Of a stretch of 64,000 nt of DNA, positions 10,843 through 40,029 are shown piece by piece (position 1 is the stretch's first letter; the number at the start of each line of letters is the position of its first letter). Under the pieces are notes generated by a model. It saw nothing but the letters and a program-made list of their open reading frames with translations. It had not been told where the DNA came from and made no database searches. The DNA is taken from the NCBI GenBank assembly GCA_964016885.1, contig OZ024743.1:117862001-117926000 (forward strand), given 5' to 3'. This DNA is from Eledone cirrhosa (Eukaryota). A program made the position numbers and the translations under genes.

Positions 10843-12101
<1,259 letters not shown>

Positions 12102-13804: not shown

Positions 13805-13834
<30 letters not shown>
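13699..13834. repeat. (TTC)n microsatellite at the left edge of the LINE array
   Basis: Pure (TTC)n directly abutting the 5'-truncated LINE. Confidence 0.95.
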
Positions 13835-13836
<2 letters not shown>

Positions 13837-15134
13837 GTCTAATGCAACTGGCAGCAGAACGGGAGAATTCCCAGTTTTGTGAGACGGGGAGCGATGACGC
13901 TGCTGAGAAAAGACCCGAACAAGGGGGATATTATCGATAACTTCAGGCCCATAACCATGCTAAACGCAGAGTTCAAGATTTTGGCCAAGGTGTTAGCGAC
14001 GAGGTTGGCGCTTGTCGTCAAAGGTCTGGTGGTAGAGGCGCAGACATGCGCCATTCCGGACAGATCCATACACGACAACCTCCACCTCATGCGATACATC
14101 ATAGAGAGGGTGGTTAAGGAACCTGGCAAGAGTGGGGCCCTGATCAACTTGGATCAATCCAAAGCATTCGATAGGGTCGACCATCGGTACCTGGCGGCGG
14201 TCCTCGAGGCAGCCGGTTTCGAGCCCGCTTTCAGGGGTTGGATCGCTGCGATGTACAGCGACATCTCCTCAGTTGTGAGGGTGAATGGTCACCTGTCGCA
14301 GCCGTTCAGCATCATGCGCTCGGTCCGCCAGGGTTGTCCCCTCTCGTCCCTCTTGTACGTATTGGCTCTCGATCCGTTACTGCACAAACTGGGTCGAAGA
14401 GGGGCGTCCCACGCGAACTAGGATACGGGAAATCCGAATCGGCTTACGCCGACGACTTCACCGTGGTGGTGTCGAGCACCAGACATGTCCAGATGCTCGG
14501 CACCGCTCTCAAGGAATACAAAGCGATAACAGGAGCAAAGATAAACCAGGAAAAGTCGGTGGGCTTGCAGCTCGGCACCTGGATAGGCAAGTCCATGCCG
14601 TCCGACAGCGTCGTGGGGCGTTGGACAGACCGGTTAAATTGCTCGGGGTCTGGTTCGGAACGGACGTCCAGATGGAGAAAAACTGGAGCGAGGTGACAAG
14701 CAAGGTGGCCTCCCTCACCCATAAATGGGCCGAGAGGAAGCTGTACCTGAAAGGCCGGGCGGAGGTGGCGAATGCGTACATCGCATCCGTCATCTGCTAC
14801 CGCCTCACCGTCGTCCCTGCCCCGGCCCAACTCTCACCAAAATAGAGCACCTCCTCTTCCGCTTTTTGTGGAAAAAACGCGCTACCATGGTCAGACGATC
14901 CTCGGAGGTTTCCCCCCTATTGGGGAATTTTTCATTGTTTAAATTTTCATTTTTATTGTTTATATATATATATATGTTTCTATGTATTTTTCTTTTTCTT
15001 TTCTTATATAAATAATAAAAATCTTTACACGAACAAAACTCACATCGTACCGTCCTGTGCCGTCTGTAATGTTTTTCTTGATGTCAGCCCTTGTGGCCAA
15101 TAAAGAAATAATAATAATTATTATTATTATTATT
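13835..15134 (+). mobile_element. 5'-truncated, internally deleted Tx1-type LINE (diverged subfamily)
   Basis: RT motifs RPITMLNAEFKIL, LDQSKAFDRVDH, QGCPLS, YADD with frameshifts. Jumps at ~14901 from the RT thumb to the 3' UTR. Ends AATAAA plus an (AAT)/(ATT)n tail. Confidence 0.9.
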
Positions 15135-16749
15135 GGCGACCTACGTAGGAAATCGTATCATCGTGAATTCCGCAGAGGTTTGTTGTTTTCGTTTGTTTAA
15201 AATTGCCATTTATGTAAAATTTTTGTTATTAACTATTTATAAGGTCACAAAATTTGCTTTTGGAAAAGAACACTCAAAAAGATTGGGGCCTTGAGCCCAA
15301 AATTTAAACTTTTATAATTATCAAATAAAAAAATTTCTTTGAAAAATCATGGACGATTGCAGGTGTTGAAGCCGCCACCCCACCACCACCACAGCGACAA
15401 CAGAAACAAAAGAAAAAAATAAATTATCTCGTGACATCGAAATGGATTCACCCAGAATGGATTCTTCCACACCGAACGCCACTGACGCCACCACCACCAC
15501 CACAACTGAAACTAAAAATAACAATAACAAAAATAACGATAACAACAACAATGAGAATAAGAAAACCAGCGTGTCTTTTGCCGGAGCAGCAAAAGAGTGC
15601 GAAAAAATCCAGGTAACTCAGGAGGAATTAGATGAAGCCAAGAGAATAGTAAAGAAAGATGGGTACAGGGTCAGCCCCCCCCCCCCCCCCACACACACAC
15701 CTAATAAAATGGAGCATCGGCGCCTATGCACCGTGTCTTATCGGACGTTAAACATAAAATCGCGCCGAGTGGAACGGGCATCCAGTCCCAAATCCAAAAA
15801 GCTTTCGGAAATGTGTGGGCAAAAAAACCCACATCCGACGTGGGCAGAAATATGGAACCGTGGACGTGTTCTTTGGAACACCACAGGAGGCCAGAGAACA
15901 TTCTATGGCCCCATTAAGAAGTGACGACTTCACACTCGTCCGAAGCTACTGTGGCCAGAGACTTGTGAAGATCAGGGTCAGCACGTTCCACCGGCCATCG
16001 AAATTCCCTGGCTAATGGCTGCCTTCCTCGCCGGCATCGAGGCCAAAACCAAGATAATCGAAATAGCAAAATAAAAGCTGGAGAACTGGTCCCGATCTGG
16101 GATGGAGCTCCTGATCCAAGCAGAACAAAAAAGCATTGAGGAGATGCCAGAGGTAATAGACCTCACTGGCTGAAGCCACCTCACCGTAATCACCAGCAGC
16201 AGAGATGGAAGCAACAACTGTAGCAGCAACAACAGAAGCAACTGGAACAGCAACAACTCCGGCAAGAGTAGCAAAACCAACACCACCACCACCCAACGCG
16301 CCAGAACTAGCACCAGCGCCTACAGCATCCAGCAAGCCACAACCAAAACCAACGCCTGTGGAGGATTTTCCACTCCCCGACCTATCGCAACTGGAAAGAA
16401 ATTGTAACGACGAGGAGTGGGAAACGGTATCAGGAAAAAAGAAAAAAAGAAAATGAAGCCAAAAAAGAAAAAAATCCTCTTCCTTCCCCCTCCAAAAATA
16501 AAATACAGAGGGAAACAAATAAACTATCAAACAAAAAAGGTAGGACAGCTATGCCACCATCCACACCAGCATCACCGACCCCATCACCACAAACACCAAC
16601 ACCATCACTATCATTAACCCCAACACCACCATCACCAACACCACAAAAGTCACCAAAAAGCGAAACAGAAACAAACCCACAACAAACGCAAACAAAACAA
16701 AACAACCAAAACGATACACAATACACAGCATTACATTTGAACAACAACC

Positions 16750-16854
16750 GTAAGGATGAGAGGTTGACTTTGCCTTTCATCCTTACGGGGTCGATAAAAC
16801 AAAGTACCAGTAATGCACTGGGTAATTGCTGGCCTTGTGCCTAAAGTAGAAACA
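16750..16854 (+). mobile_element. 5'-truncated SINE inserted in ORF1 of copy B1, 20-bp TSD
   Basis: TSD attacatttgaacaacaacc at 16730-16749 and 16855-16874. Body matches the 3' half of the SINE at 47335-47530. The empty site is visible in copy B2 near 63328. Confidence 0.85.
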
Positions 16855-17171
16855 ATTACATTTGAACAACAACCAATTATTACACTGCATCCAACACAAC
16901 ACCAGCATCACAGAAAAAGACTACACAACAACCCAAAAGTTTACACCACCTCAGTACATACAAATCACTCGCATCACACAGAAAACGTACTCGACACTAA
17001 AACAAAAATTCCCCAAAGACATCGGAGACTTCCGACAAGCACTCTCCAGGAGGATTTATAAAGCCATTGTTCCGGAGGAGGCCACAAGCAGTGAGAAGGA
17101 TGGATAAACCATCCTTCCTCTACGAGAAGTAAGGTAACTGGTCTTTCCCATCTTTTCCACTCCTTTTAAAC

Positions 17172-20100
17172 ATGACCTCACTCAGAATAGGCAGCATAAA
17201 TGCGCGTGGCTTGCGGTCGTCATGGAAGCAGAGCGACCTGCTCAACGACCTCAGGTCACTAAACATATATGTAGTGGCCATCAGCGAGACCAGAATCTCC
17301 GAAGCACGGGCCTTCACACCGATCTTCGGCGGCTACGATCTGTACGCATCTTCCAGCCGTCCGGGATCGGGGGGGGGGGTGCTATACTTTTTTGGAGAGG
17401 TTTGGATCTCGCCATACTGGCCATCTTCCTGGAACCAGAAGGTAAGTTGGTGGTGCTGGGCGGGCCCAGCAGAGACGGGCAGGCTTTCAGGCTAGTGGCC
17501 GTCTATGCCCAGACAGGAGCAGGGCGGCCTGATTTCTTCCGGCGTCTGGAGACCTTTCTTGGAACGTCCCGCTCTTTACTGTTAGTGGACGACAGGAACG
17601 GGATCTTAGATGCACGCTGGGATTGTGTGGGATTAGCGGATAGGAGAGGAGGGTGAAAGAGCCTCACCAACCTTCTCAGGCGTTTCGAACTGTCTGACAG
17701 GTATCGATTGGATTTCCCGAATGTGCCAATGTGGACTTGGACAAACCGCATAGGGTCATCCAGATCATATCTAGATAGAGTATTTTGTAAGGAAATAGAT
17801 AAGTATAGCATAGGCTGTCCACAATTCAAGATAGTCAGCTGCACGGAACAAATGCATCCTTACCAGCACGCAAGGCCTACAGAGACCGGATTAGCGAACT
17901 AGTTAAGCGGGCGTTGACGGGGGCCATCGTCAACAACAAGTCGTGGTTTGCTCTGAAAAGAGCGATTAGAATAGAGTCCATTAGGTTTAGTAAGGCTTTA
18001 GCAATAGAGAAAAATAGAGCAGAAGGAGAACTAGTTAGAAAATTAGACGAGGCGCTTAGCAAAGTTTTTGCAGCCGACGTACTAGCGGCGAAATTGGCCC
18101 TTGACCAATTCTTCGAAGCTAAGCACGAAGGCTGCGTTGTCAGAGCTAGAGTGCGTGCTCTCAGACACGAGGGGACGTAGCCGATCAATGGGCCCGAGTG
18201 GCGGAGGCGCGTCGTGGAAACAAAGCCACGATCCGGTCTTTGGTGGATCACGACGGGTGCATGCTACTCGATCCCGGGAAAATGTGTGAAGCTTTTCAGC
18301 GACACTTCGCTCATCTGTTCGGGGGCAGCGGCGGGCCGGATCGAGGGATGGACTTTAGTGTCTACCTCGACGGACTGCCGCGGCTCTCGGCCACTGAGGC
18401 AGAGTGTTGCTAAAAGCCGATAACAGCCGCTGAAGTACGGGAGGCAATGACTGGCTGCACAAGGGTAAATCGCCTCGTTGGATGGTCTGCCCTATGAACT
18501 TTACGTACAAATGCCAGACTTGTTCGGAGGCCTCTTGGCGGACGTCTACTGAAACTGGCAACAGAACGGGACGATTCCAAGCTCTGTGAGCCGAGGAGCA
18601 GTGGCGCTGCTGAGAAAGGATCCGAACAAGTGGTGTTACATAGATAATTTCAGACCCATAACTCTGCTAAACACAGAGTTCAAGATTTTGCCCAAAGGTG
18701 CTAGCAAAGAGGTTGGCGCTTGTCGTTGGTGGTCTGGTGGGAGAGGCGCAGACGTGCGCCATTCCCGACAGATCCATCCACGACAACCTCCACCTCATGC
18801 GATAGATCGTAGAGAGGGAAGCTAGGGAAAGTGGCACGGGTGGATCAGTGATCGATTTATATCTGTCGAAACTTTCGATAGGTTCGACCATCGTTACCTA
18901 GCCGCAATCCTGAGGGCGGCTGGCTTTGAGCCCGTATTCAGAGGCTGGACCGCTGCCATGCACAGCGACGTCTGCACTGTGGTGAGATTGAACGGTCACC
19001 TTTCGGAACCGTTCAATATCATGCGCTCGGGCCTCCAAAGATGTCCCCTCTCGTCCCTCTTGTACGTATTGACTCTCGAGCCATTACTGCACAAACTGGA
19101 GACGTTGAGGTGTGTCCCGCGCGAACTAGGATGCGGAAGATCCGTGTCAGCATATGAGGACGACGTCACCGTAGTGGTGTCGAACGCCAAACACATCGAG
19201 GCGATCGGCACTACACTAAGAGCATACGAAGCGGTGACAGGAGCAATGATCAACCAGGAAAAGTCACTGGGCCTGCAGCTAGGCACCTGGAGAGGCATGT
19301 CCATGCCGTCCAACAGCGTCGTCGGGCGCTGGACGGACGGACCGGTTAAATTGCTAGAGGTCTGGTTCGGTCCGGACCTCCAGACGGACAAAAACTGAGA
19401 CGAGTTGACGAGCAGGGTGGCTTCTCTCACCCAGAAATGGGCGGAGAGGAAGCTATGCCTGAAATGTCGAGCGGAGGTGGCTAATGCGTACATCGCGTCC
19501 GTCATCTACTACCGCCTGACCGTCGTACCCTGTCCTAAGCACCACCTGACTGCGCAGGAGCGTTTGCTCTTTCGCTTTTTGTGGAAGGGACGCGCTCCGA
19601 TGGTCACGCGGTCCATCTGCTGTCAACACCCGCTACGTGGAGGGCTGGGAATGCCGTGGCTGATGATGCGCAGACACGCGCTCAGGCTACGACATCTCCA
19701 CCTCTTCCTCGACGGTGATCAGGTGTGGTCGCTGTTTGCTAGACACGTATTTCCCTAGCTCGTTTCCTTGACGGAGCTGCAGTCCTGGGTCAAGCGAAGA
19801 CAGAGAGGGAGCCCCTGGAGACTGGAATGTCTTCAGGCGCTCACAGCACTCGACCAATCGGGCAATGTGATCGGTGGAAACTCCACCTCGGCGTTCTATA
19901 GAGGATTAGTGGAGGGGAAGAGCGACGACGTACTTGGAGAAACTCTAGGCGTCGACGAAAATCAAATAGCCAATCTCTTCCGAAGAACTTTCGGGCCGGG
20001 ACCTATGGACAACTTCCAGAAATCTCTGGCCTGACAGTGCTACCGAGGAGCCTTGCCAGTTCGGGATAAACTCTACAGGCATGGAGGTGCCGTCAAGCGG

Positions 20101-20519
20101 GCATGTCCGAGATGCGCGCAGGCGACGAAACCATCCTGCACGCTCTCGTCCAGTGTCCGAAAATTGCTGACTTGTGGGTTTATGTCGAACACCTGCTGTC
20201 ACGTGTGGGACGGATCCGGCTATCATCTGAGTCCATCGTGAGTATTGCCCCGCCCTCTTCCTTTATCCGGGAAGGGCAGGCAGTTTTTATCTGTCTGGTG
20301 GCCATGGCGAAAGAGATAGTATGGTGGACACGTTTGAAAGGGCTGAAGTCGAGCACTTACCTCTTCGGTGATGCTCTGATTGACTTTTTCAAATTTCATT
20401 TGAAAAGGAAAATCAGAGTAGAGAGGGAAGTACTCTCTTCGCAGCATTTTGTTGAAAGATGGGTGAGAGAAGCAAGAATGGCCCTAGTGAATGGGCCTAC
20501 TCTGAGTATATATCTGTAA
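17172..20519 (+). pseudogene. Disrupted ORF2 (APE endonuclease-RT-CCHC) of copy B1
   Basis: Fragments colinear with the intact 1139-aa ORF2; multiple stops and frameshifts, YADD changed to YEDD. Confidence 0.9.
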
Positions 20520-20802
20520 ATTAAAGTTGGAAAACATGGAGAGGGCACCTGCCTTGGTGGTCAGGGTCACTGTGGCCTTTTACTGGGCTTTCTCCACAAA
20601 TGTCCCTCCGAAGTCTCCCCCCTATTGGGGAATTTTTCATTGTTATTTTTTTTTACATCCTCTGTTTTTGTTTTTTACACGCAGAAATGCCCATTTGTAC
20701 CGTCCTGTATTGTCCTGCACTGTCCTTAATGTCTACTTTATGTAAACCCTTGTGGTTAATAAAGAAATCATTATTATTATTTTTATTATTATTATTATTA
20801 TT

Positions 20803-23800
20803 GAATGCTATGGTTGACGGAGGCTCGGCTCTGTAAGTTATTGTAAATTTTGAACGCTATAACAATTGTAAATTGTTTAAAACTTTACCAACTTGTAGAC
20901 AAAAACACCCTCCTCCTCGTGAGAGAGGTCTTTCTGCCCGTTATTTGGCCCATCGGGGTTAAATAACTGCTTATTGAGGTTTTGTGCCCAATATTTATTT
21001 TAAACAAAAGAAAACAACATGGCTACGAAAAAGAATTTTCATAGGTCACTCCCACTCATTCCGTCTTCTTCTTCCTCAATCGTCACTACAGCAGAGAGAA
21101 GATTGTCTCTCTCCCTCCCTTCTTTAAATGTGTCTCTCTCCCTCCCTTCTCTTTCGCAAGCGACGACAGAAAAGAAAAGTCTCATGCAAAGCGTGCAAGA
21201 TTTCTCCACGACGACGACGACAACGACGACGAAACAGGTGTGCGGGAAATACGAAAACCCATTTCATTCGTCTGACGTCATGAATAATAGCAGTAGCAGC
21301 CGTAATAACAACAGCAACAGTGACAATGAAAACAACAGTAGCAGCCGCAACAGCATCAGCAGCAGCATAAACAACAACAGCATTAGCAGCAGCAACAACA
21401 ACAACAACCACAGCAACAGTGGGGGCGGCAGTAGTCGTAGTACCTGCAGCAACAACAAAAGTAACAGCAGCTCTGACGACAACAACAACAACAACAGCAG
21501 CAAAGAAAAACCAATCTCGTTTGCAGGTATCGCGAAGAACCTGGAAACAATCCTCATAACAAATGAGGAATTAGAGGAAGCGAAGAAGAGGGTGACAAAA
21601 ATTGGACACCGAGCAATCTCCAAGGCAGCTGAAACATTTTTCGAAACCCAAGAGCACTGTACGGTCACGTACCGTACAGTAAGTACAAAATCCCGTAGGG
21701 TTGAAAGAGCCACAGAGGCTCAAATACAAAAAGCCTTGGGATCTGTGTGGTAGCGGAAAACGCACATCACCCGAGGCAAAAAATATGCCACCGTAGACGT
21801 ACTTTTTGCCACACCCCAGGAGGCAAAGGCTCAATCCGTAGTGACCCTAAGGAGCGAGAAAATGGTGTTGGTGCCCTCCTACTGCGGGCAAATAATTGTG
21901 AGGGTCAAACTGACCCACGTCCCCCCCCCACCACCACCACCCCCGGATGGCCCCTTCTTGGCTGACCGCGTCTGTCCTCGTCGGAATCGAGGACAAAACA
22001 ACTGTACTGCAAGTACAGACAAAAGTAAGAGAGGATTGGGTCGGCACCTCCATTGAGATGCTAATCCAAACCAACCAGGAGTGCATCGAAGCTATCCCGG
22101 ATGTGATAGACTTCGATAACGGCACTCAACTGCCCATAAGTGTTGAGGGCAAACGCCCGAAATGCTTTCGCTGTGGATCGAAGACTCACCTCAGGGCCTT
22201 CTGCAACGAGAAGACCCTGAGAAAGGAGAAAACCCCCTCCTTCCGAAACCGGCTCCACGGCTACCAGCAACATGATAGGCGGCAAGCAGGAACGATAGGT
22301 CCGTGGCACCCATACCCACGCCACGGAAATCAAAGACAGCAGCAGCAGTGGAAGTATTAACAACAACAACAACAGCAATACCAAATGCAGCTGCAACAGA
22401 GACTCCAGTGCAAACATCACCAACAACAACAAGTGAAAGAGTGGAGCTGGTACCCCTCCCCGACCTCACAGAATCAGACATGGAGTGTGAGGTGGGAGAG
22501 GGATGGCAAAAGGTCGTAAGAAGGCACAAACGCAGAAGCAGCGCATCGTCGCCTTTGAAAGGGGAGGAAAGAAATGAATAAAGGGTAAAGTCTACTGCAA
22601 AGAGACTCACAGCAGCAACACCACCAACACCATCACCACCCACACTAGCACCACCATCACCACCGGCGACAACCCCACCGCCAACAACAACAACACCTTG
22701 AACACCACCACCACAAGCACCAACATCGCAAACACAACAACAAAACACACACACCCAGCAAAAACGACAAGAAAATAGCAGAACCACACCCCACCCCCAG
22801 AAAAAGAAATGCACGTCAATAAATACACACAACAAGAAACTAATGACTTACATAATTGAACACACAGACATTTCACAACACGACTACATAATACCAGCAC
22901 CAATCAAAACGCCAACTAACATAAGACTGATAAAAATAGCACAGAAACAATACACAAACATTAAAACGTAATTCCCCAACGCAGTGGGTGATTTCAGAGA
23001 CCTAGGAGGAACTATCAATCGAAGAGTATATTCGGACATACTCATAGAAAAGCCGATGACCAGCCGAAAGGACGATTCAACGGTCCCTTCACCGACGATC
23101 AAGTGAAAAGGGATGTAAAAACCATCCCTCCTCTACGAAAAGTACGGTAAGTGGTCTTTCCCATCTTTTCCACTCTATTTTAAACATGACCTCACTCAGA
23201 ATAGGCAGCATAAATGCGCGTGGCTTGGGGTCGTCATTGAAGCAGGGTCACCTGCTCAACGACCTCAGGTCACTAAACATAGATGTAGTGGCCATCAGCG
23301 AGACCAGAATCTCCGAAGCACGGGCCTTCGCACCGATCTTCGGCGGCTACAATGTGTACGCATCTCCCAGCCGTCCTGGATCGGGGGGAGGAGTTGCTGT
23401 GCTTTTTCGGAGAGGTTTGGATCTCGCCATACGGGCCATCTTCCTGGACCCAGAGGGTAAGTTGGTGGTGCTGGACGTGGCCAGCGGAGACGGGCAAGCT
23501 TTCAGGCTAGTGGCTGTTTATGCCCCGACAGGAGCAGGGCGGCCTGATTTCTTCCGGCGTCTGGAGACCTTTCTTGCAACGTCCCGCTCTTTAGTGTTAG
23601 TGGGCGAATGGAACGGGATATTCGATGCCCGCTGGGACTGTGTGGGATTAGCGGATAGGGGTGGGGTGTGCAAGAGCCTCACCAACCTGTCAGGCGTTTT
23701 GAACTGTCTGACAGGTACGGATTGGATTTCCCGAATGTGCCAATGTGGACTTGGACAAATCGCATGGGGTCATCCAGATCATATCTAGATAGAGTATTTT

Positions 23801-26800: not shown

Positions 26801-26882
26801 CACTGTCCTTAATGTCTACTTTATGTAAACCCTTGTGGTTAATAAAGAAATCATTATTATTATTTTTATTATTATTATTATT
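20803..26882 (+). mobile_element. Tx1-type LINE copy A1, full length, inactivated
   Basis: Starts gaatgctatggttgacggaggctcgg after (ATT)n. ORF1 21019-23150 and ORF2 23186-26603 both broken by stops and frameshifts. Tail 26853-26882. Confidence 0.92.
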
Positions 26883-27095
26883 GAATGCCATGGTTGACGG
26901 AGGCTCGGCTCTGTAAGGTATAGTAATTTTTAACCGTTAAAACAATTGTAAATTGTTTAAAACTTGAACCAAATTGTTGATAAAGACACCCTCCTCCTCG
27001 TGAGAGGGGTCTTTCTGTCCGTTATTTGGCCCTTCGGGGTTAAATAACCAGTTATTGGGGTTTTGTACCCAAAATTTCATTTTAAACAAAAAAAC

Positions 27096-29189
27096 ATGGC
27101 TACCAAAAAGAAATTTCATACGTCACTCCCACTCATTCCGTCTTCTTCTTCCTCAATCATCACTACAGCAGAGAGAAGATTGTCTCTCTCCCTCCCTTCT
27201 TCAAATGTGTCTCTCTCCCTCCCTTCTCTTTCGCAAGCGACGAAAGAAAAGAAAAGTCTCGTGCAAAGCGTGCAAGGTTTCTCCACGACGACGACGACAG
27301 CGACGAAACAGGTGTGCGGGAAATACGAAAACCCAGTCCATTCGTCTGACGTCAGGAATAATAGCAGTAGCAGCCGTAATAACAACAGCAACAGTGACAA
27401 TGAAAACAACAGTAGCAGCCGCAACAGCATCACCAGCAGCATAAACAACAACAGCATTAGCAGCAGCAACACCAACAACAACCACAGCAACAGCGGCGGA
27501 GGCAGTAGTCGTAGTACCTGCAGCAACAAAAGTACCAGCAGCTCTGACGACAACAACAACAGCAGAGAAAAACCAATCTCATTTGCAGGTATTGCGAAAA
27601 ACTTGGAAACAATCCTCATAACAAATGAGGAATTAGAGGAAGCGAAGAAGATGCTGACAAAGAACGGACACCGAGCAATCTGCAAGGCAGCGGAAAAGTT
27701 TTTCGAGACCCAAGAGCACTGTACGGTCACGTACCGTACAGTAAGTACAAAATCCCGTAGGGTGGAAAGAGCCACAGAGGCCCAAATACAAAAAGCCTTG
27801 GGGTCTGTGTGGCAGCGGAAAACGCACATCACCCGAGGCAAAAAATATGCCACCATAGACGTACTTTTTGCCACACCCCAGGAGGCAAAGGCCCAATCAG
27901 TAGTGACCCTAAGGAGCGAGGAAATGGTGTTGGTGCCCTCCTACTGCGGGCAAAAAATTGTGAGGGTCAAACTGACCCACGTCCCACCCGGAATGACCCC
28001 TTCTTGGCTGGCCGCGTCTGTCCTCGTCGGAATCGAGGACAAAACAACTGTACTGCAAGTACAGAAAAAAGTAAGAGAAGATTGGGTCGGCTCCTCCATT
28101 GAGATGCTAATCCAAACCAACCAGGAGTGCATCGAAGCTATCCCGGATGTGATAGACTTCGATAACGGCATTCAACTGCCCATAAGTGTTGAGGGCAAAC
28201 GCCCGAAATGCTTTCGCTGTGGATCGAAGACTCACCTCAGGGCCTTCTGCAACGAGAAGACCCTGAGAAAGGAGAAAACCCCCCTCCTTCCGAATCCGGC
28301 TCCACGGCTACCAGCAACAGGACAAGCGGCAACCAGGAACGATAGGTCCGTGGCACCCATACCCACTCCACGGAAATCAAAGACAGCAGCAGCAGTGGAA
28401 ATATTAACAACAACAACAGCAATACCAAATGCAGCTGCAACAGAGACTCCAGTGCAAACATCACCAACAACAACAAGTGAAAGAGTGGAGCTGGTACCCC
28501 TCCCCGACCTTACAGAATCAGACATGGAGTGTGAGGTGGGAGAGGGATGGCAAAAGGTCTCAAGAAGGCACAAACGCAGAAGCAGCGCATCGTCGCCTTT
28601 GAAAAGGGAGGAAAGAAATGAGAAAAGGGTAAAGTCTACTGCAAAGAGACCCACAGCAGCAACACCACCAACACCATCACCACCCACACCAGCACCACCA
28701 TCACCACCGGCGACAACCCCACCGCCAACAACACCTGCAACACCACCACCACAAGCACCAACATCGCAAACACAACAACAAAACACACACACCCAGCAAC
28801 AACGACAAGAAAATAGCAGAACCACACCCCACCCCCAGAAAAACAAATGCACGGCAATAAACACACACAACAAGAAACTAATGACTTACATAATTGAACA
28901 CACAGACATTTCACAACAGGACTACATAATACCAGCACCAATCAAAACGCCAACTAACATAAGACTGCTAAAAATAGCACAGAAACAATACACAAACATT
29001 AAAACGAAATTCCCCAACGCAGTTGGTGATTTCAGGGACCTAGGAGGAACCATTAATCGAAGAGTATATTCAGACATTCTCTTAGAAGAGCCGACGACCA
29101 GCCGAAGGGACGATTCAACGGTCCCTTCACCAGACGATCAAGTGAAAAGGGATGTAAAAACCATCCCTCCTCTACGAAAAGTACGGTAA
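27096..29189 (+). CDS. LINE ORF1p, 697 aa, nucleic-acid binding (gag-like zinc knuckle)
   Basis: ATG in aaaacATGgct context shared by all A copies. CX2CX4HX4C knuckle CFRCGSKTHLRAFC; N/S-rich N-terminal and P/T-rich C-terminal low-complexity regions. Confidence 0.9.
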   Translation: MATKKKFHTSLPLIPSSSSSIITTAERRLSLSLPSSNVSLSLPSLSQATKEKKSLVQSVQGFSTTTTTATKQVCGKYENPVHSSDVRNNSSSSRNNNSNSDNENNSSSRNSITSSINNNSISSSNTNNNHSNSGGGSSRSTCSNKSTSSSDDNNNSREKPISFAGIAKNLETILITNEELEEAKKMLTKNGHRAICKAAEKFFETQEHCTVTYRTVSTKSRRVERATEAQIQKALGSVWQRKTHITRGKKYATIDVLFATPQEAKAQSVVTLRSEEMVLVPSYCGQKIVRVKLTHVPPGMTPSWLAASVLVGIEDKTTVLQVQKKVREDWVGSSIEMLIQTNQECIEAIPDVIDFDNGIQLPISVEGKRPKCFRCGSKTHLRAFCNEKTLRKEKTPLLPNPAPRLPATGQAATRNDRSVAPIPTPRKSKTAAAVEILTTTTAIPNAAATETPVQTSPTTTSERVELVPLPDLTESDMECEVGEGWQKVSRRHKRRSSASSPLKREERNEKRVKSTAKRPTAATPPTPSPPTPAPPSPPATTPPPTTPATPPPQAPTSQTQQQNTHTQQQRQENSRTTPHPQKNKCTAINTHNKKLMTYIIEHTDISQQDYIIPAPIKTPTNIRLLKIAQKQYTNIKTKFPNAVGDFRDLGGTINRRVYSDILLEEPTTSRRDDSTVPSPDDQVKRDVKTIPPLRKVR

Positions 29190-29224
29190 GTGGTCTTTCC
29201 CATCTTTTCCACTCTATTTTAAAC

Positions 29225-32200
29225 ATGACCTCACTCAGAATAGGCAGCATAAATGCGCGTGGCTTGGGGTCGACATGGAAGCAGGGTCACCTGCTCAACG
29301 ACCTCAGGTCACTAAACATAGATGTAGTGGCCATCAGCGAGACCAGAATCTCCGAAGCACGGGCCTTCGCACCGATCTTCGGCGGCTACGATGTGTACGC
29401 ATCTCCCAGCCGTCCTGGATCGGGTGGAGGAGTTGCTGTGCTTTTTCGGAGAGGTTTGGATCTCGCCATACGGGCCATCTTCCTGGACCCAGAGGGTAAG
29501 CTGGTGGTGCTGGACGTGACCAGCGGAGACGGGCAAGCTTTCAGGCTAGTGGCCGTCTATGCCCCGACAGGAGCAGGGCGGCCTGATTTCTTCCGGCGTC
29601 TGGAGACCTTTCTTGGAACGTCCCGCTCTTTAGTGTTAGTGGGCGACTGGAACGGGATCTTAGATGCACGCTGGGACTGTGTGGGATTAGCGGATAGGGG
29701 TGGAGGGTGCAAGAGCCTCACCAACCTGCTCAGGCGTTTTGAACTGTCTGACAGGTACCGATTGGATTTCCCGAATGTGCCAATGTGGACTTGGACAAAC
29801 CGCATAGGGTCATCCAGATCATATCTAGATAGAGTATTTTGTAGGGAAATAGATAGGTCTAGCATAGGCTGTCCACAATTCAAGATAGTCAGCTACACGG
29901 ACCACAAATTCGTGACCTGTGTGCTTGACTTAGATAGGCTTCATAGACGAGGACCTGGCTACTGGAAGCTAAACGCGTCCTTACCAGCGCGCAAGGCCTA
30001 CAGAGACCGGATTAGCGAACTAGTTAAGCGGGCGTTGACGGGGGCCATCGTCAACAACAAGTGGTGGTTTGCTCTGAAAAGAGCGATTAGAATAGAATCG
30101 ATTAGGTTTAGTAAGGCTTTAGCAATAGAGAAAAATAGAGCAGAGGGAGAACTAGTTAGAAAATTAGACGAGGCGCTTAGCAAAGGCATTGCGACCGACG
30201 TGCTTGCGGCGAAATTGGCCCTTGACCAATTCTTCAATGCAAAGCACGAAGGCTGCGTTGTCAGAGCTAGGGTGCGTGCTCTCAGACACGAGGGGACGAA
30301 AGCCGTTCAATGGGCCCGAGTGGCGGAGGCGCGTCGTGGCAACAAAGCCACGATCCGGTCTTTGGTGGATCACGACGGGCGCATGCTACTCGATCCCGGG
30401 CAAATGTGTGAAGCTTTTCAGCGACACTTCGCTCAGCTGTTCGGGGGCAGCGGGGGGCCGGGTAGAGGGATGGACTTTAGTGTCTACCTCGACGGACTGC
30501 CGCGGCTCTCGGCCACTGAGGCGAAGTGTTGCGAAAAGCCGATAACAGCCGCTGAAGTACGGGAGGCAATGACTGGCTGCACAAGGGGTAAATCGCCTGG
30601 TTTGGATGGTCTGCCCTATGAACTTTACGTACAGATGCCAGACTTGTTCGGAGGCCTCTTGGCGGACGTCTACTGCAACTGGCAACAGAACGGGAGAATT
30701 CCCAGTTCTGTGAGCCGAGGAGCGGTGGCACTGCTGAGAAAGGATCCGAACAAGGGGGATAACATAGACAATTTCCGGCCCATAACTCTGCTAAACACAG
30801 AGTTTAAGATTTTGGCCAAGGTGCTAGCAAAGAGGTTGGCGCTTGTCGTTGGTGGTCTGGTGGGAGAGGCGCAGACATGCGCCATTCCCGACAGATCCAT
30901 CCACGACAACCTCCACCTCATGCGATACATCGTAGAGAGGGTAGCTAGGGAACCTGGCACGGGTGGGTCCTTGATCAATTTAGATCAGTCGAAAGCTTTC
31001 GATAGGGTCGACCATCGTTACCTAGCGGCAGTCCTGAGGGCGGCTGGCTTTGGGCCCGTCTTCAGAGGCTGGATCGCTGCCATGCACAGCGACATCTGCT
31101 CTGTAGTGAGAGTGAACGGTCACCTGTCGGAACCGTTCAAAATCATGCGCTCGGTCCGCCAAGGATGTCCCCTCTCGTCCCTCTTGTACGTATTGACTCT
31201 CGAGCCATTACTGCACAAACTGGAGACGTTGAGGGGAGTCCCGCGCGAACTAGGATGCGGAAGATCCGTGTCAGCATATGCGGACGATGTCACCGTAGTG
31301 GTGTCGAACGCCAAACACATCGAGGCGATCGGCACTACACTAAGAGAATACGAAGCGGTGACAGGAGCAATGATCAACCAGGAAAAGTCAGTGGGCCTGC
31401 AGCTCGGCACCTGGAGAGGCAGGTCCATGCCGTCCAACAGCGTCGTCGGGCGCTGGACGGACGGACCGGTTAAATTGCTAGGGGTCTGGTTCGGTCCGGA
31501 CCTCCAGACGGACAAAAACTGGGACGAGGTGACGAGCAGGGTGGCTTCTCTCACCCAGAAATGGGCGGAGAGGAAGCTATCCCTGAAAGGTCGAGCGGAG
31601 GTGGCTAACGCGTACATCGCGTCTGTCATCTGCTACCGCCTAACCGTCGTACCTTGTCCTAAGCCTCGTCTGACTGCGCTGGAGCGTTTGCTCTTTCGCT
31701 TTTTGTGGAAGGGACGTGCTCCGATGGTCAGGCGGTCCATCTGTTGTCAACACCCGCTACGTGGAGGGCTGGGCATGCCGTGGCTGATGATGCGCAGGCA
31801 CGCGCTCAGGCTACGACATCTCCACCTCTTCCTCGACGGTGATCAGGTGTGGTCGCCGTTTGCTAGACGCGTTTTTCCCCAGCTCGTTTCCTTGACGGAG
31901 CTGCCGTCCTGGGTCAAGCGAAGACCGAGAGGGAGCGCCTGGAGACTGGAATGTCTTCAGGCGCTCACAGCCCTCGACCAATCGGGCAATGTGATCGGTG
32001 GAAACTCCACCTCGGCGTTCTATAGAGGATTAGTGGAGGGGAAGAGCGACGACGTACTTGGGGAAACTCTAGGCGTCGACGAAAATCAACTAGCCAATCT
32101 CTTCGGAAGAACTTTCGGGCCAGGGCCTATGGACAACTTCCAGAAATCTCTGGCCTGGCAGTGCTACCGAGGAGCCTTGCCAGTTCGGGATAAACTCTAC

Positions 32201-32644
32201 AGGCATGGAGGTGCCGTCAGCCGGGCATGTCCGAGATGCGCGCAGGGCGACGAAACCGTCCTGCACGCACTCGTCCAGTGTCCGAAAATTGCTGACTTGT
32301 GGGTTTATGTCGAACACCTGCTGTCGCGTTTAGGACGGATCCAGCTATCATCTGAGTCTATCGTGAGGATTGCCCCGCCCTCCTCCTTTAGCCGGGAAGG
32401 GCAGGCAGTTTTTATCTGTCTGGTGGCCATGGCGAAAGAGATAGTATGGTGGACACGTTTGAAAGGGCTGAAGACGAGCACTTACCTCTTCGGTGATGCT
32501 CTGATTGACTTTTTCAAATTTCATTTGAAAAGGAAAATCAGAGTAGAGAAGGAAGTGCTCTCTTCCCAGCATTTTGTTGAAAGATGGGTGAGAGAAGCAA
32601 GAATGGCCCGAGTGAATGGGCCGACTCTGAGTATATATCTGTAA
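29225..32644 (+). CDS. LINE ORF2p, 1139 aa: APE endonuclease + reverse transcriptase + C-terminal CCHC (L1/Tx1 group)
   Basis: APE motifs SINARG, ISET, VYAP, GDWN, LDR, TDH; L1/Tx1 linker GPGYWKLN; RT motifs KSPGLDG, RPITLLN, DQSKAFDRVDH, RQGCPLS, YADD, LLG; CPRC..ETVLHALVQC. Confidence 0.95.
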   Translation: MTSLRIGSINARGLGSTWKQGHLLNDLRSLNIDVVAISETRISEARAFAPIFGGYDVYASPSRPGSGGGVAVLFRRGLDLAIRAIFLDPEGKLVVLDVTSGDGQAFRLVAVYAPTGAGRPDFFRRLETFLGTSRSLVLVGDWNGILDARWDCVGLADRGGGCKSLTNLLRRFELSDRYRLDFPNVPMWTWTNRIGSSRSYLDRVFCREIDRSSIGCPQFKIVSYTDHKFVTCVLDLDRLHRRGPGYWKLNASLPARKAYRDRISELVKRALTGAIVNNKWWFALKRAIRIESIRFSKALAIEKNRAEGELVRKLDEALSKGIATDVLAAKLALDQFFNAKHEGCVVRARVRALRHEGTKAVQWARVAEARRGNKATIRSLVDHDGRMLLDPGQMCEAFQRHFAQLFGGSGGPGRGMDFSVYLDGLPRLSATEAKCCEKPITAAEVREAMTGCTRGKSPGLDGLPYELYVQMPDLFGGLLADVYCNWQQNGRIPSSVSRGAVALLRKDPNKGDNIDNFRPITLLNTEFKILAKVLAKRLALVVGGLVGEAQTCAIPDRSIHDNLHLMRYIVERVAREPGTGGSLINLDQSKAFDRVDHRYLAAVLRAAGFGPVFRGWIAAMHSDICSVVRVNGHLSEPFKIMRSVRQGCPLSSLLYVLTLEPLLHKLETLRGVPRELGCGRSVSAYADDVTVVVSNAKHIEAIGTTLREYEAVTGAMINQEKSVGLQLGTWRGRSMPSNSVVGRWTDGPVKLLGVWFGPDLQTDKNWDEVTSRVASLTQKWAERKLSLKGRAEVANAYIASVICYRLTVVPCPKPRLTALERLLFRFLWKGRAPMVRRSICCQHPLRGGLGMPWLMMRRHALRLRHLHLFLDGDQVWSPFARRVFPQLVSLTELPSWVKRRPRGSAWRLECLQALTALDQSGNVIGGNSTSAFYRGLVEGKSDDVLGETLGVDENQLANLFGRTFGPGPMDNFQKSLAWQCYRGALPVRDKLYRHGGAVSRACPRCAQGDETVLHALVQCPKIADLWVYVEHLLSRLGRIQLSSESIVRIAPPSSFSREGQAVFICLVAMAKEIVWWTRLKGLKTSTYLFGDALIDFFKFHLKRKIRVEKEVLSSQHFVERWVREARMARVNGPTLSIYL

Positions 32645-33159
32645 ACTAAAGGTGGAAAACTGGGAGAGGGCACTTGCCTTGGTGGTCAGGGTCATTGTGG
32701 CTTTTTACTGGGCTTTCTCCACAAATGTCCCTCCGAAGTCTCTCCCCTATTGGGGAATTTTTCATTGTTATTTTCATTGTTATTTTTGTTACATCCTCTG
32801 TTTTTGTTTTTTTACACGCAGAAATGCCCATTTGTACCGTCCTGCATTGTCCTGCACTGTCCTTAATGTCTACTTTATGTAAACCCTTGTGGTTAATAAA
32901 GAAATCATTATTATTATTTTTATTATTATTATTATTATTATTATTGAATGCCATGGTTGACGGAGGCTCGGCTCTGTAAGGTATAGTAATTTTTAACCGT
33001 TAAAACAATTGTAAATTGTTTAAAACTTGAACCAAATTGTTGATAAAGACACCCTCCTCCTCGTGAGAGGGGTCTTTCTGTCCGTTATTTGGCCCTTCGG
33101 GGCTAAATAACCAGTTATTGGGGTTTTGAACCCAATATTCATTTTAAACAAAAAACAAC

Positions 33160-35255
33160 ATGGCTACGAAAAAGAAATTTCATACGTCACTCCCACTCAT
33201 TCCGTCTTCTTCTTCCTCAATCATCACTACAGCAGAGAGAAGATTGTCTCTCTCCCTCCCTTCTTTAAATGTGTCTCTCTCCCTCCCTTCTCTTTCGCAA
33301 GTGACGAAAGAAAAGAAAAGTCTCGTGCAAAGCGTGCAAAGTTTTTCCACGACGACGACGACAGCGACGAAACAGGTGTGCGAGAAATACGAAAACCCAG
33401 TTCATTCGTCTGACGTCAGGAATAATAGCAGTAGCAGCCGTAATAACAACAGCAACAGTGACAATGAAAACAACAGTAGCAGCCGCAACAGCATCACCAG
33501 CAGCATAAACAACAACAGCATTAGCAGCAGCAACACCAACAACAACCACAGCAACAGCGGCGGAGGCAGTAGTCGTAGTACCTGCAGCAACAACAAAAGT
33601 ACCAGCAGCTCTGACGACAACAACAACAGCAGAGACAAACCAATCTCATTTGCAGGTATTGCGAAAAACTTGGAAACAATCCTCATAACAAATGAGGAAT
33701 TAGAGGAAGCGAAGAAGATGGTGACAAAGAACGGACACCGAGCAATCTGCAAGGCAGCGAAAAATTTTTTCGAAACCCAAGAGCACTGTACGGTCACGTA
33801 CCGCACAGTAAGTACAAAATCCCGTAGGGTGGAAAGAGCCACAGAGGCCCAAATACAAAAAGCCTTGGGGTCTGTGTGGCAGAGGAAAACGCACATCACC
33901 CGAGGCAAAAAATACGCCACCGTAGACGTACTTTTTGCCACACCCCAGGAGGCAAAGGCCCAATCAGTAGTGACCCTAAGGAGCGAGGAAATGGTGTTGG
34001 TGCCCTCCTACTGCGGGCAAAAAATTGTGAGGGTCAAACTGACCCACGTCCCCCCGGAATGACCCCTTCTTGGCTGGCCGCGTCTGTCCTCGTCGGAATC
34101 GAGGACAAAACAACTGTACTGCAAGTACAGAAAAAAGTAAGAGAAGATTGGGTCGGCTCCTCCATTGAGATGCTAATCCAAACCAACCAGGAGTGCATCG
34201 AAGCTATCCCGGATGTGATAGACTTCGATAACGGCACTCAACTGCCCATAAGTGTTGAGGGCAAACGCCCGAAATGCTTTCGCTGTGGATCGAAGACTCA
34301 CCTCAGGGCCTTCTGCAACGAGAAGACCCTGAGAAAGGAGAAAACCCCCCTCCTTCCGAATCCGGCTCCACGGCTACCAGCAACAGGACAAGCGGCAACC
34401 AGGAACGATATGTCCGTGGCACCCATACCCACTCCACGGAAATCAAAGACAGCAGCAGCAGTGGAAATATTAACAACAACAACAGCAATACCAAATGCAG
34501 CTGCAACAGAGACTCCAGTGCAAACATCACCAACAACAACAAGTGAAAGAGTGGAGCTGGTACCCCTCCCCGACCTTACAGAATCAGACATGGAGTGTGA
34601 GGTGGGAGAGGGATGGCAAAAGGTCGCAAGAAGGCACAAACGCAGAAGCAGCGCATCGTCGCCTTTGAAAAGGGAGGAAAGAAATGAGAAAAGGGTAAAG
34701 TCTACTGCAAAGAGACCCACAGCAGCAACACCACCAACACCATCACCACCCACACCAGCACCACCATCACCACCGGCGACAACCCCACCGCCAACAACAC
34801 CTTCAACACCACCACCACAAGCACCAACATCGCAAACACAACAACAAAACACACACACCCAGCAACAACGACAAGAAAATAGCAGAACCACACCCCACCC
34901 CCAGAAAAACAAATGCACGGCAATAAACACACACAACAAGAAACTAATGACTTACATAATTGAACACACAGACATTTCACAACAGGACTACATAATACCA
35001 GCACCAATCAAAACGCCAACTAACATAAGACTGCTAAAAATAGCACAGAAACAATACACAAACATTAAAACGAAATTCCCCAACGCAGTTGGTGATTTCA
35101 GGGACCTAGGAGGAACCATCAATCGAAGAGTATATTCAGACATTCTCTTAGAAGAGCCGACGACCAGCCGAAGGGACGATTCAACGGTCCCTTCACCAGA
35201 CGATCAAGTGAAAAGGGATGTAAAAACCATCCCTCCTCTACCAAAAGCACGGTAA
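33160..35255 (+). pseudogene. ORF1 of copy A3, split by a 1-bp deletion in a C run near 34052
   Basis: gtccccccgga vs gtcccacccgga in A2; could also be a sequencing or assembly error. Confidence 0.75.
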
Positions 35256-35290
35256 GTGGTCTTTCCCATCTTTTCCACTCTATTTTAAAC

Positions 35291-38200
35291 ATGACCTCAC
35301 TCAGAATAGGCAGCATAAATGCGCGTGGCTTGGGGTCGTCATGGAAGCAGGGTCACCTGCTCAACGACCTCAGGTCACTAAACATAGATGTAGTGGCCAT
35401 CAGCGAGACCAGAATCTCCGAAGCACGGGCCTTCGCACCGATCTTCGGCGGCTACGATGTGTACGCATCTCCCAGCCGTCCTGGATCGGGTGGAGGAGTT
35501 GCTGTGCTTTTTCGGAGAGGTTTGGATCTCGCCATACGGGCCATCTTCCTGGACCCAGAGGGTAAGCTGGTGGTGCTGGACGTGACCAGCGGAGACGGGC
35601 AAGCTTTCAGGCTAGTGGCCGTCTATGACCCGACAGGAGCAGGGCGGCCTGATTTCTTCCGGCGTCTGGAGACCTTTCTTGGAACGTCCCGCTCTTTAGT
35701 GTTAGTGGGCGACTGGAACGGGATCTTAGATGCACGCTGGGACTGTGTGGGATTAGCGGATAGGGGTGGAGGGTGCAAGAGCCTCACCAACCTGCTCAGG
35801 CGTTTTGAACTGTCTGACAGGTACCGATTGGATTTCCCGAATGTGCCAATGTGGACTTGGACAAACCGCATAGGGTCATCCAGATCATATCTAGATAGAG
35901 TATTTTGTAGGGAAATAGATAGGTCTAGCATAGGCTGTCCACAATTCAAGATAGTCAGCTACACGGACCACAAATTCGTGACCTGTGTGCTTGACTTAGA
36001 TAGGCTTCATAGACAAGGACCCGGCTACTGGAAGCTAAACGCGTCCTTACTAGCGCGCAAGGCCTACAGAGACCGGATTAGCGAACTAGTTAAGCGGGCG
36101 TTGACGGGGGCCATCGTCAACAAGAAGTGGTGGTTTGCTCTGAAAAGAGCGATTAGAATAGAATCGATTAGGTTTAGTAAGGCTTTAGCAATAGAGAAAA
36201 ATAGAGCAGAGGGAGAACTAGTTAGAAAATTAGACGAGGCGCTTAGCAAAGGCATTGCGACCGACGTGCTTGCGGCGAAATTGGCCCTTGACCAATTCTT
36301 CAATGCAAAGCACGAAGGCTGCGTTGTCAGAGCTAGGGTGCGTGCTCTCAGACACGAGTGGACGAAAGCCGTTCAATGGGCCCGAGTGGCGGAGGCGCGT
36401 CGTGGCAACAAAGCCACGATCCGGTCTTTGGTGGACCACGACGGGCGCATGCTACTCGATCCCGGGCAAATGTGTGAAGCTTTTCAGCGACACTTCGCTC
36501 AGCTGTTCGGGGGCAGCGGGGGGCCGGGTAGAGGGATGGACTTTAGTGTCTACCTCGACGGACTGCCGCGGCTCTCGGCCACTGAGGCGAAGTGTTGCGA
36601 AAAGCCGATAACAGCCGCTGAAGTAAGGGAGGCAATGACTGGCTGCACAAGGGGTAAATCGCCTGGTTTAGATGGTCTGCCCTATGAACTTTACGTACAG
36701 ATGCCAGACTTGTTCGGAGGCCTCTTAGCGGACGTCTACTGCAACTGGCAACAGAACGGGAGAATTCCCAGTTCTGTGAGCCGAGGAGCGGTGGCACTGC
36801 TGAGAAAGGATCCGAACAAGGGGGATAACATAGACAATTTCCGGCCCATAACTCTGCTAAACACAGAGTTTAAGATTTTGGCCAAGGTGCTAGCAAAGAG
36901 GTTGGCGCTTGTCGTTGGTGGTCTGGTGGGAGAGGCGCAGACATGCGCCATTCCCGACAGATCCATCCACGACAACCTCCACCTCATGCGATACATCGTA
37001 GAGAGGGTAGCTAGGGAACCTGGCACGGGTGGGTCCTTGATCAATTTAGATCAGTCGAAAGCTTTCGATAGGGTCGACCATCGTTACCTAGCGGCAGTCC
37101 TGAGGGCGGCTGGCTTTGGGCCCGTCTTCAGAGGCTGGATCGCTGCCATGCACAGCGACATCTGCTCTGTGGTGAGAGTGAACGGTCACCTGTCGGAACC
37201 GTTCAACATCATGCGCTCGGTCCGCCAAGGATGTCCCCTCTCGTCCCTCTTGTACGTATTGACTCTCGAGCCATTACTGCACAAACTGGAGACGTTGAGG
37301 GGAGTCCCGCGCGAACTAGGATGCGGAAGATCCGTGTCAGCATATGCGGACGATGTCACCGTAGTGGTGTCGAACGCCAAACACATCGAGGCGATCGGCA
37401 CTACACTAAGAGAATACGAAGCGGTGACAGGAGCAATGATCAACCAGGAAAAGTCAGTGGGCCTGCAGCTCGGCACCTGGAGAGGCAGGTCCATGCCGTC
37501 CAACAGCGTCGTCGGGCGCTGGACGGACGGACCGGTTAAATTGCTAGGGGTCTGGTTCGGTCCGGACCTCCAGACGGACAAAAACTGGGACGAGGTGACG
37601 AGCAGGGTGGCTTCTCTCACCCAGAAATGGGCGGAGAGGAAGCTATCCCTGAAAGGTCGAGCGGAGGTGGCTAACGCGTACATCGCGTCTGTCATCTGCT
37701 ACCGCCTAACCGTCGTACCTTGTCCTAAGCCTCGCCTGACTGCGCTGGAGCGTTTGCTCTTTCGCTTTTTGTGGAAGGGACGTGCTCCGATGGTCAGGCG
37801 GTCCATCTGTTGTCAACACCCGCTACGTGGAGGGCTGGGCATGCCGTGGCTGATGATGCGCAGGCACGCGCTCAGGCTACGACATCTCCACCTCTTCCTC
37901 GACGGTGATCAGGTGTGGTCGCCGTTTGCTAGACGCGTTTTTCCCCAGCTCGTTTCCTTGACGGAGCTGCAGTCCTGGGTCAAGCGAAGACCGAGAGGGA
38001 GCGCCTGGAGACTGGAATGTCTTCAGGCGCTCACAGCCCTCGACCAATCGGGCAATGTGATCGGTGGAAACTCCACCTCGGCGTTCTATAGAGGATTAGT
38101 GGAGGGGAAGAGCGACGACGTACTTGGGGAAACTCTAGGCGTCGACGAAAATCAACTAGCCAATCTCTTCGGAAGAACTTTCGGGCCAGGGCCTATGGAC

Positions 38201-38710: not shown

Positions 38711-38969
38711 ACTAAAGGTGGAAAACTGGGAGAGGGCACTTGCCTTGGTGGTCAGGGTCATTGTGGCTTTTTACTGGGCTTTCTCCACAAATGTCCCTCC
38801 GAAGTCTCCCCCCTATTGGGGAATTTTTCATTGTTATTTTCATTGTTATTTTTGTTACATCCTCTGTTTTTGTTTTTTACACGCAGAAATGCCCATTTGT
38901 ACCGTCCTGCATTGTCCTGCACTGTCCTTAATGTCTACTTTATGTAAACCCTTGTGGTTAATAAAGAAA

Positions 38970-39052
<83 letters not shown>

Positions 39053-39055
<3 letters not shown>

Positions 39056-39665
39056 TCTGAACGGACGTCTTTTTGCTCGCCCTCATAAGTTTATTTATTT
39101 ATCAGTCAAAAGTTATTTATTGAATTTTTTGTTCTTGTGTAAGGCATGCAAGCTCTTGGACTCTGCCCTGCGCAAGGGATAGAATAATATTTGGGCCTTT
39201 TGGCCCAAATATTTGAACTTTTTTACATTTTAAAAAATTATCGAAGAAAAAAAAACAAAAAAAACATGGCTGAGCCACGCCTCCCAGCGATATGTCTGCT
39301 GTCGTGCGACAACGATGTAGAAGTTAAGAGGAGAGCTACGGTGAAATTAACAGAAATTGATACAACAAACACCACTACAAACAATGTGAACAAAGACAGC
39401 AATGATAACAACACTGAGAACTCTGATTTTGAAAAAAAAGGACAGTAATAACGACAACGAAAATACAGATAACAGAAATAATGACAAATGCAACAACAAT
39501 ATCAACAACACTAACATGAAAACAAATAGCGACAACACCAACAGCAACAGTACCAACTGCACCGAGAACAACGGCGGCACCAAAGACTACAATGATAACA
39601 GCGACAGTGATAACAACAACACCAACAAGAACATTCGGATGTAACACATGCGCAAACTAAGCACG
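39053..39665 (+). mobile_element. Probable 5' end of a third related LINE (type-C 5' module), 3'-truncated
   Basis: Begins right after (ATT)n; ~210-nt T-rich leader with a ttgggcc/ggcccaa hairpin; aaaacATGgct at 39266 followed by an Asn-rich (aac) region, as in modules A and B. Confidence 0.55.
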
Positions 39666-39976
39666 CATCACACACAAAAACAAGATGGCGTAGGACAGAA
39701 TAAAGGAGAGGCACAAAAACAAAGAAAATAATCCCCAGTCACTGAAATGGTCACATAATGTGTGACGAAAAAATGTTGACAATATATGAACAAACGCCCG
39801 GTTATGGAACCAACCAACCGGAAATTTATAAATTCTTAAATTTATAAATTTAATTTATAATAAATTGGAGTGAAAGTAACTGGTGCGTGTGTTTCTTATT
39901 GGTAACATGGCCCCCCAAAGCATAACAATAACGGTTTCAACACACGTTTTCAGATAAAGAATCTTGCTATCAGAAA

Positions 39977-40029
<53 letters not shown>

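Follow-up and report, generated by a model that had tools for sequence, protein, structure and literature searches.

We have found that an array of long interspersed nuclear elements (LINEs) in the octopod Eledone cirrhosa is stacked head to tail through tracts of a single triplet, ATT. The array lies at positions 13835-39665 of a 64-kb window (contig OZ024743.1 of assembly GCA_964016885.1, positions 117,862,001 to 117,926,000 of the forward strand; positions below are those of the window), where inspection of the sequence reveals six units on the plus strand with five (ATT)n tracts between them (Table 1). Five of the six are Tx1/L1-type LINEs, and the sixth, D, is a 613-bp head only. We consider it likely that such elements insert into (ATT)n, that the tail of one copy provides the target for the next, that repeated insertions from at least four subfamilies built up the array, and that later recombination overwrote some of the 3' ends.

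Self-comparison separates a truncated unit (A), four units of 5.7-6.1 kb each (B1, C1, C2 and C3) and D (613 bp). D is presumably a member of the same series, to judge from its head and the start of an Asn-rich open reading frame (ORF), since it carries no reverse transcriptase (RT). At the 3' ends an AATAAAG signal is followed by an ATT tract, and the first base of the next unit is the one that follows the last base of the tract (15134, 20802, 26882, 32945 and 39052). Same-strand units, (ATT)n junctions with direct 5' ends, and (ATT)n 3' ends had all been described in an earlier note on this DNA, and we find them as described, save that the tail of A has (AAT)4 before its ATT repeats. Start positions are precise: B1 and B2, at loci 46 kb apart, begin at the identical base (GGCGACCTACG), as do C1, C2 and C3 (GAATGCYATGG), and the heads of B, C and D, which cannot be aligned with one another, represent three types. 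Across the window, seven of nine unit starts follow at least three ATT units, the exceptions being the diverged, 5'-truncated relatives A and F; in non-element DNA, the positions directly behind such a tract number only 10 among 25,680 on the plus strand and 46 among 25,680 on the minus strand (0.04-0.18%). The two ATT starts outside the array, those of E (54685) and B2, had likewise been recognized earlier; they follow (ATT)3 and the tract at 61410-61462, respectively, and both tracts also border Dong-type elements that we describe below.

Several observations weigh against a target preference of this kind. Five of the seven ATT starts lie within one array and hence are not independent, and the preference rests on one 64-kb window. 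Among the three truncated copies (A, E and F), only E begins at ATT, and its start has just three ATT units, which also border the end of a Dong-type element; A is preceded by (TTC)45 and F by a TCTA-like stretch, both being members of other families. We note that at 2633-2726 (ACT)16 runs straight into (AAT)15, an unoccupied AAT tract that no LINE adjoins; this continuity suggests that triplet units interconvert, and the (TTC)45 before A could derive from an ATT tract. It has also to be considered that there is no sequence-specific nicking, insertion occurring at breaks or in A/T-rich or simple-repeat DNA, with (AUU)n pairing alone selecting the site and copies accumulating where selection is weak. 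The flanks of A and F would suit this account, and so would the endonuclease loop that sets target choice, which here has the same length as its human L1 counterpart in the alignment. Passive accumulation has been proposed for Waldo-A and Waldo-B (PMC3812793). Nevertheless, the window is rich in tracts, (TA)n and (TG)n among them, that no Tx1-like unit adjoins, and every B, C and D start is at ATT in a single orientation; we regard insertion without specific nicking as unlikely.

In C2, the second open frame (ORF2) scores above the Pfam cut-off for PF03372, PF00078 and PF13966, and its best match among solved structures is human L1 ORF2p (E = 1.5e-52), with which its N, E, Y, D, N, D and H positions, presumably catalytic, are aligned. 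ORF1 has no Pfam match; its core resembles a ZCCHC3-type RNA-binding domain, a resemblance that serves as a lead only (Atlas: zf-CCHC, ZCCHC3-type, 0.90-0.93). The anatomy of the L1/Tx1 group is thus present, an APE-RT-zinc finger ORF2 together with a separate ORF1 bearing a nucleic-acid-binding domain. The closest named protein to ORF2 is from Argonauta hians (69%), a match that by itself points to a likely octopod host, followed by unnamed proteins at about 40% and by fish and Xenopus Tx1 proteins at about 30%, and no row labelled Kibi or Koshi is among the ORF2 matches listed. In a quick RT tree (69 rows, rooted at the midpoint and containing no L1 reference by name; of 120 listed matches, 52 were omitted, close unnamed ones being thinned and short ones dropped), the window element groups with the Argonauta protein and unnamed proteins (support 99), outside the vertebrate group that contains Xenopus Tx1, and its group is joined with the Xenopus Tx1 group (99) and one long row at a support of only 87. 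The label 'Tx1-like' is a fair one for the array elements: the Tx1-type identity put forward earlier is borne out at the level of Tx1/L1-type anatomy, and on this tree the elements may belong to the Tx1 clade in the strict sense.

With the possible exception of C2 and C3, the units of the array do not appear to be copies of one another. DNA-level similarity between B and C sets in just upstream of ORF2 and extends through that frame; their ORF1 cores are only 48% identical and their heads cannot be aligned, which argues that these neighbours were not copied from each other. Over the 3.7 kb common to the units, divergence is 5.3-6.5% between B1 and the others, 2.9% between C1 and C2 or C3, and 0.6% between C2 and C3; E, which lies outside the array, is closer to C2 and C3 (2.3%) than is their neighbour C1 (2.9%). 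Private changes in ORF2 are neutral, with 52 nonsynonymous and 17 synonymous in C1 and 34 and 9 in E, compared with a neutral ratio of 3.1. ORF2 changes common to B1 and C1 relative to the rest comprise 8 synonymous and 4 nonsynonymous ones, including one stop (P = 0.002), and those common to C2 and C3 comprise 4 and 1 (P = 0.014). Common changes that are biased towards synonymous sites, together with private changes that are neutral, suggest that the copies departed, each in its own time, from a lineage that was active and under selection, and this pattern of departure followed by decay is consistent with what separate retrotransposition would predict. Decay is greatest in B1, less in C1 and least in C2 and C3, an order from which we infer that new copies entered on the D side. 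The earlier assertion that the units differ in age and 5' module, and that simple duplication cannot explain all of them, therefore stands, given three heads and unequal decay. We rejected the idea that A is a decayed member of the same family because its differences are mostly synonymous (82 synonymous and 42 nonsynonymous single-base codon changes relative to C2, with 1 stop and 3 gaps), which makes A a separate family.

A second account of the array starts from one or two tandem insertions that arose by chance and were then multiplied through unequal exchange or local duplication, in which case the ATT tracts would be no more than tails copied with their units. R1 arrays, which expand by unequal exchange, offer a precedent (PMC5932611). 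C2 and C3 differ at 45 of 6021 aligned bases (0.75%), with 5 gaps, and both carry a 12-bp duplication in the 3' untranslated region (UTR); the final 198 aligned bases of B1 and C1 show no difference; and the tails of B1, C1 and C2 have a common TTT interruption after four ATT units, found at these three junctions and absent from the last tail, that of C3, whose right flank is non-homologous (the tails of C3 and E are pure). The interruption is explained equally well by DNA-level copying, and further points also count against repeated insertion: the ORF1 changes common to C2 and C3 are 2 synonymous and 3 nonsynonymous, the copy tree is weakly supported (66 and 72), and the stop codon that B1 and C1 share is one of three clustered common changes (C2 31869-31880), which indicates that conversion contaminates the branch test. 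However, unequal exchange cannot produce joins between unlike partners, as at A/B1, B1/C1 and C3/D and at the starts of E and B2, and an exchange between C2 and C3 would be confined to the final ~70 bases of a 3.8-kb homologous stretch, the last position at which C2 and C3 agree against C1 being column 3706. For the array as a whole we accordingly think this explanation improbable, and much less probable than for the C2/C3 pair alone; that pair could be a local duplicate, although we would put this at somewhat less than an even chance, two insertions from one source also fit, and two haplotypes are less likely. A partial assembly artefact, such as two haplotypes of one insertion placed in tandem as C2 and C3, is very unlikely: in our judgement a 0.75% difference is plausible for alleles, and no listed contig bridges the C2/C3 junction (the junction repeat being skipped in mapping), but 45 substitutions and 5 gaps are not an error pattern, the remaining units are 3-20% apart and also differ in head type, and a false loop would require a join through ~70 identical bases.

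Insertion would not have acted alone. Over the final 212 ungapped columns of B1 there is not one private substitution where 10.2 would be expected (P = 4e-5). The final 291 columns of C1 are likewise free of them, compared with an expectation of 5.9 (P = 0.003), although this stretch is weaker than it appears because C1 also has an internal gap of 335 columns. In E, private changes number 25 in the final 406 columns and 34 in the preceding 3261 (P = 5e-10, with the breakpoint placed by eye); the coding part of this discordant end has 7 nonsynonymous and 2 synonymous changes, unlike a selected donor, and the 5-base deletion of E recurs in contigs of three sequencing runs (X1, X4 and X6). On these comparisons we read the 3' ends of B1 and E as overwritten and that of C1 as probably so, which would mean that recombination, too, had a part in shaping the array. 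The 3'-end pattern can be accounted for by gene conversion of the ordinary kind, acting between homologous junctions. Alternatively, a tail-primed cDNA may anneal to the upstream resident and replace that resident's 3' end; annealing of cDNA ends to upstream homology has been proposed for the 5' junctions of R1 and R2 (PMC2718515), and the absence of truncated units inside the array would follow from such overwriting. Stacking by repeated insertion, as proposed in the earlier note, is thus supported, but 3'-end recombination, the possible duplicate origin of the C2/C3 pair and the Dong-type elements were all missing from that proposal.

These last elements belong to a second cluster at 51.5-64 kb, where two minus-strand RT elements of R4/Dong type lie between F, E and B2. 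Read on its own strand, Dong-type 2 has (AAT)n on both sides, and Dong-type 1 has (AAT)3 at its 5' side. The translation of Dong-type 2 contains the motifs CRVC...H...C, RHD, RPD...D and K..KY..L, which we take to be the finger and restriction-like endonuclease of R4/Dong elements. The relatives of the two elements are 55-73% identical and unnamed or uninformatively named, and no match among them bears the name Dong or R4; our label draws on the motifs, on the flanks, on the fact that Dong targets TAA repeats (PMC3812793) and on the listing of Dong-R4 as active in Octopus vulgaris (PMC13282606). The presence of a Dong-type element in the tail tract of E, together with the TAA target of Dong, marks these tracts as insertion targets. 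Two clades use one (ATT)n/(AAT)n tract, on opposite strands. Once Dong-type 2 is removed, E, (ATT)n and B2 remain as a head-to-tail pair that resembles the pairs of the main array. A join of F to Dong-type 1 through an ATT tract was also considered and was dropped, the join being TC/TCTA-like. We note that the flanks of F (51480-51509 and 52940-52965) are degraded TCTA/TC-like repeats, a hint of a sister family with another microsatellite target.

If the array did grow by repeated insertion, the APE domain would nick the A-rich (AAT)n strand, and the element RNA, ending a few AUU units past its AAUAAA signal, would pair with the nicked strand and prime reverse transcription. The new copy would then land between the old tail and the former downstream sequence, with ATT on both sides, and the ATT left there would be a fresh target for the following insertion. 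Nicking by the APE domain and priming by the RNA are predicted steps; target-like RNA ends that pair with their targets have been described for R1Bm and SART1Bm (PMC7265360).

Sequence from elsewhere bears on the abundance of the family. Of 24 sequencing runs listed, all of them as contigs, 20 contain part of this sequence, and no RNA run is listed among those 20. When contigs from four runs were mapped to 30200-36150, which runs from C2 into C3, with the ATT tail skipped as a repeat, 58,301 (X1), 1,170 (X4), 32 (X5) and 8,407 (X6) records aligned, and these counts, in which depth is not copy number, show that the family is abundant, with near-identical copies under three organism codes. The 24 loose contig ends listed, from a total of 4,823, have no ATT flank, the tail itself having been skipped in mapping. 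Depth in X4 is heavier towards the 3' end, which in a set of contigs is no evidence of expression. X5 and X6, under two other organism codes, contain long contigs ~99% identical to C2 and C3, for which close relatives, contamination or transfer are candidates. A repeat scan found no ATT tract at 54 related metagenome loci, whose best-segment identity of only 22-48% makes them too remote to bear on the target, and no related loci were found in viral contigs.

Other features of the units and their surroundings can be mentioned briefly. A short way upstream of ORF1, the C and D heads have stable hairpins (z -3.5 to -4.2; 26950-27099, 20870-21019 and 39120-39269), and the B heads retain a similar short motif but fold no better than shuffles; neither a self-cleaving ribozyme at the 5' ends nor any credible family is among 91 Rfam matches up to E 5. 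D is interrupted by a dispersed repeat (39670-40025) that recurs inverted at 10325-10651 (69% alike). A short dispersed repeat, likely a short interspersed nuclear element, is found at 13043-13198, 16760-16858 and 47339-47528, one copy lying inside ORF1 of B1, and a 27-bp minisatellite occurs at both 1-119 and 11675-11985.

Table 1. Elements and ATT-related tracts in the 64-kb window
Feature	Positions	Strand	Description
TTC tract	13699-13834	+	Perfect (TTC)45, directly upstream of A
A	13835-15106	+	Member of a distinct related family, truncated at the 5' end and with an internal deletion; comprises RT part and 3' UTR; 80-84% to other units
A tail	15107-15134	+	A/B1 junction: AATAAAG, (AAT)4, then ATT repeats
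B1	15135-20769	+	Full length; B-type head and ORF1, decayed ORF2
B1 tail	20770-20802	+	(ATT)4 TTT (ATT)6
C1	20803-26852	+	Full length; C-type head, ~2% neutral private decay
C1 tail	26853-26882	+	(ATT)4 TTT (ATT)5
C2	26883-32906	+	Full length; both frames open
C2 ORF1	27096-29189	+	697 aa; low-complexity ends, one CCHC knuckle
C2 ORF2	29225-32644	+	1139 aa; APE endonuclease, RT (YADD), zf-RVT
C2 tail	32907-32945	+	(ATT)4 TTT (ATT)8
C3	32946-38971	+	Full length; ORF2 open, 1-base deletion in ORF1
C3 tail	38972-39052	+	Pure (ATT)27
D	39053-39665	+	Third head type; strong pre-ATG hairpin, Asn-rich ORF start; interrupted by another repeat
F	51510-52941	+	Old 5'-truncated relative (~68%); degraded TCTA/TC-like flanks, no ATT
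Dong-type 1	52968-54675	-	RT region, 3' part lost; ~50-90 bases at 5' end without protein match
ATT tract	54676-54684	+	(ATT)3 between Dong-type 1 and E
E	54685-59735	+	5'-truncated C-type copy; internal deletion, last 406 columns discordant
E tail	59736-59783	+	(ATT)16; as read on the minus strand, (AAT)16 that follows Dong-type 2 at its 3' end
Dong-type 2	59784-61409	-	5'-truncated; C-terminal CCHC finger, restriction-like endonuclease motifs
ATT tract	61410-61462	+	Interrupted (ATT)n before B2
B2	61463-64000	+	B-type head, ORF1 and ORF2 start; continues past window end

Relatives of Tx1 are known to target (TC)n, (TTC)n, (TTCC)n and (TTTC)n (PMC4494074). The array elements resemble Kibi, Koshi and the crocodilian microsatellite-targeting Tx1 elements in being APE-type, two-ORF Tx1/L1 LINEs that lie in a microsatellite (PMC4494074, PMC3812793), and the (TTC)n of Koshi is one base away from (TTA)n, which equals (ATT)n; unit A itself follows (TTC)45. 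They differ from Kibi and Koshi in their probable ATT target, their octopod host and their position outside the vertebrate group of the tree, and a pyrimidine (TC)n/(TTC)n tract is not what precedes the B, C and D units, which follow (ATT)n, only A following (TTC)n. Dong (R4) has the same microsatellite target, and Dong-type copies lie in the same tracts as array-type units (PMC3812793); in these copies, however, the endonuclease is restriction-like and C-terminal, the orientation is that of the opposite strand, and (AAT)n comes after the element, whereas the array units have an N-terminal APE domain. The R1 arrays of Drosophila are alike in re-insertion into a regenerated target, in head-to-tail order and in later unequal exchange (PMC2718515, PMC5932611), but the R1 target is a duplication of 28S rDNA, whereas in the window a microsatellite tail is used by several families and a second clade.

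Telomeric elements offer a further comparison. HeT-A, TART and TAHRE, as well as SART1 and TRAS, also form same-orientation stacks of mixed families in which a target-like RNA end aids priming (PMC5932611, PMC7265360). In contrast, the array in the window is interstitial, and its layout does not imply a host role. The earlier suggestion of a safe harbour reminiscent of telomeric arrays consequently holds for the layout but not for the setting, which is not a chromosome end: no telomeric repeat is among the 98 tandem-repeat rows of the window, and repeat-rich ordinary DNA lies on both sides of the first array.

In Octopus vulgaris, 80 L1-Tx1 families have been reported, 13 of them recently active (PMC13282606), and the window lineage may well be among them, although the comparison is by description only and the available part of that study, including one supplementary file, yielded no target preference or tandem arrangement. 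Stacking of site-specific LINEs in a regenerated target is already known, with R1 as the model (PMC5932611, PMC2718515). Our search of the full-text literature, whose scope leaves out most subscription papers, the supplements of PMC4494074, and Repbase and Dfam, turned up neither a Tx1-like family that targets (ATT)n nor arrays of this kind in cephalopods; an (ATT)n target in an octopod host is likely an undescribed instance of a known site-choosing habit.

A joint reading, which we offer tentatively and hold to be rather doubtful, is that the tail of a resident copy acts both as a landing pad and as a trap. Short tail-primed cDNAs would overwrite the 3' end of the upstream resident rather than add truncated units. 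Growth of an array would then depend on full-length or foreign-headed copies alone, older copies would come to carry young 3' ends, and heads could be exchanged between families over a common ORF2. Octopods might then carry a Tx1-like radiation on ATT, TTC and TCTA microsatellites, and this radiation and Dong would share out the (ATT)n/(AAT)n tract by occupying opposite strands.

If repeated insertion into (ATT)n is correct, an (ATT)n target and a mollusc host would join the short list of microsatellite-specific APE LINEs. The young, intact sequence would allow a test of how an L1-like endonuclease reads a triplet repeat, and the use of opposite strands of one tract by two unrelated types of endonuclease provides a natural comparison. 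Polar overwriting of 3' ends, if general, would be a testable route to the homogenisation of 3' ends, the exchange of 5' modules and the passage from transposable element to satellite.

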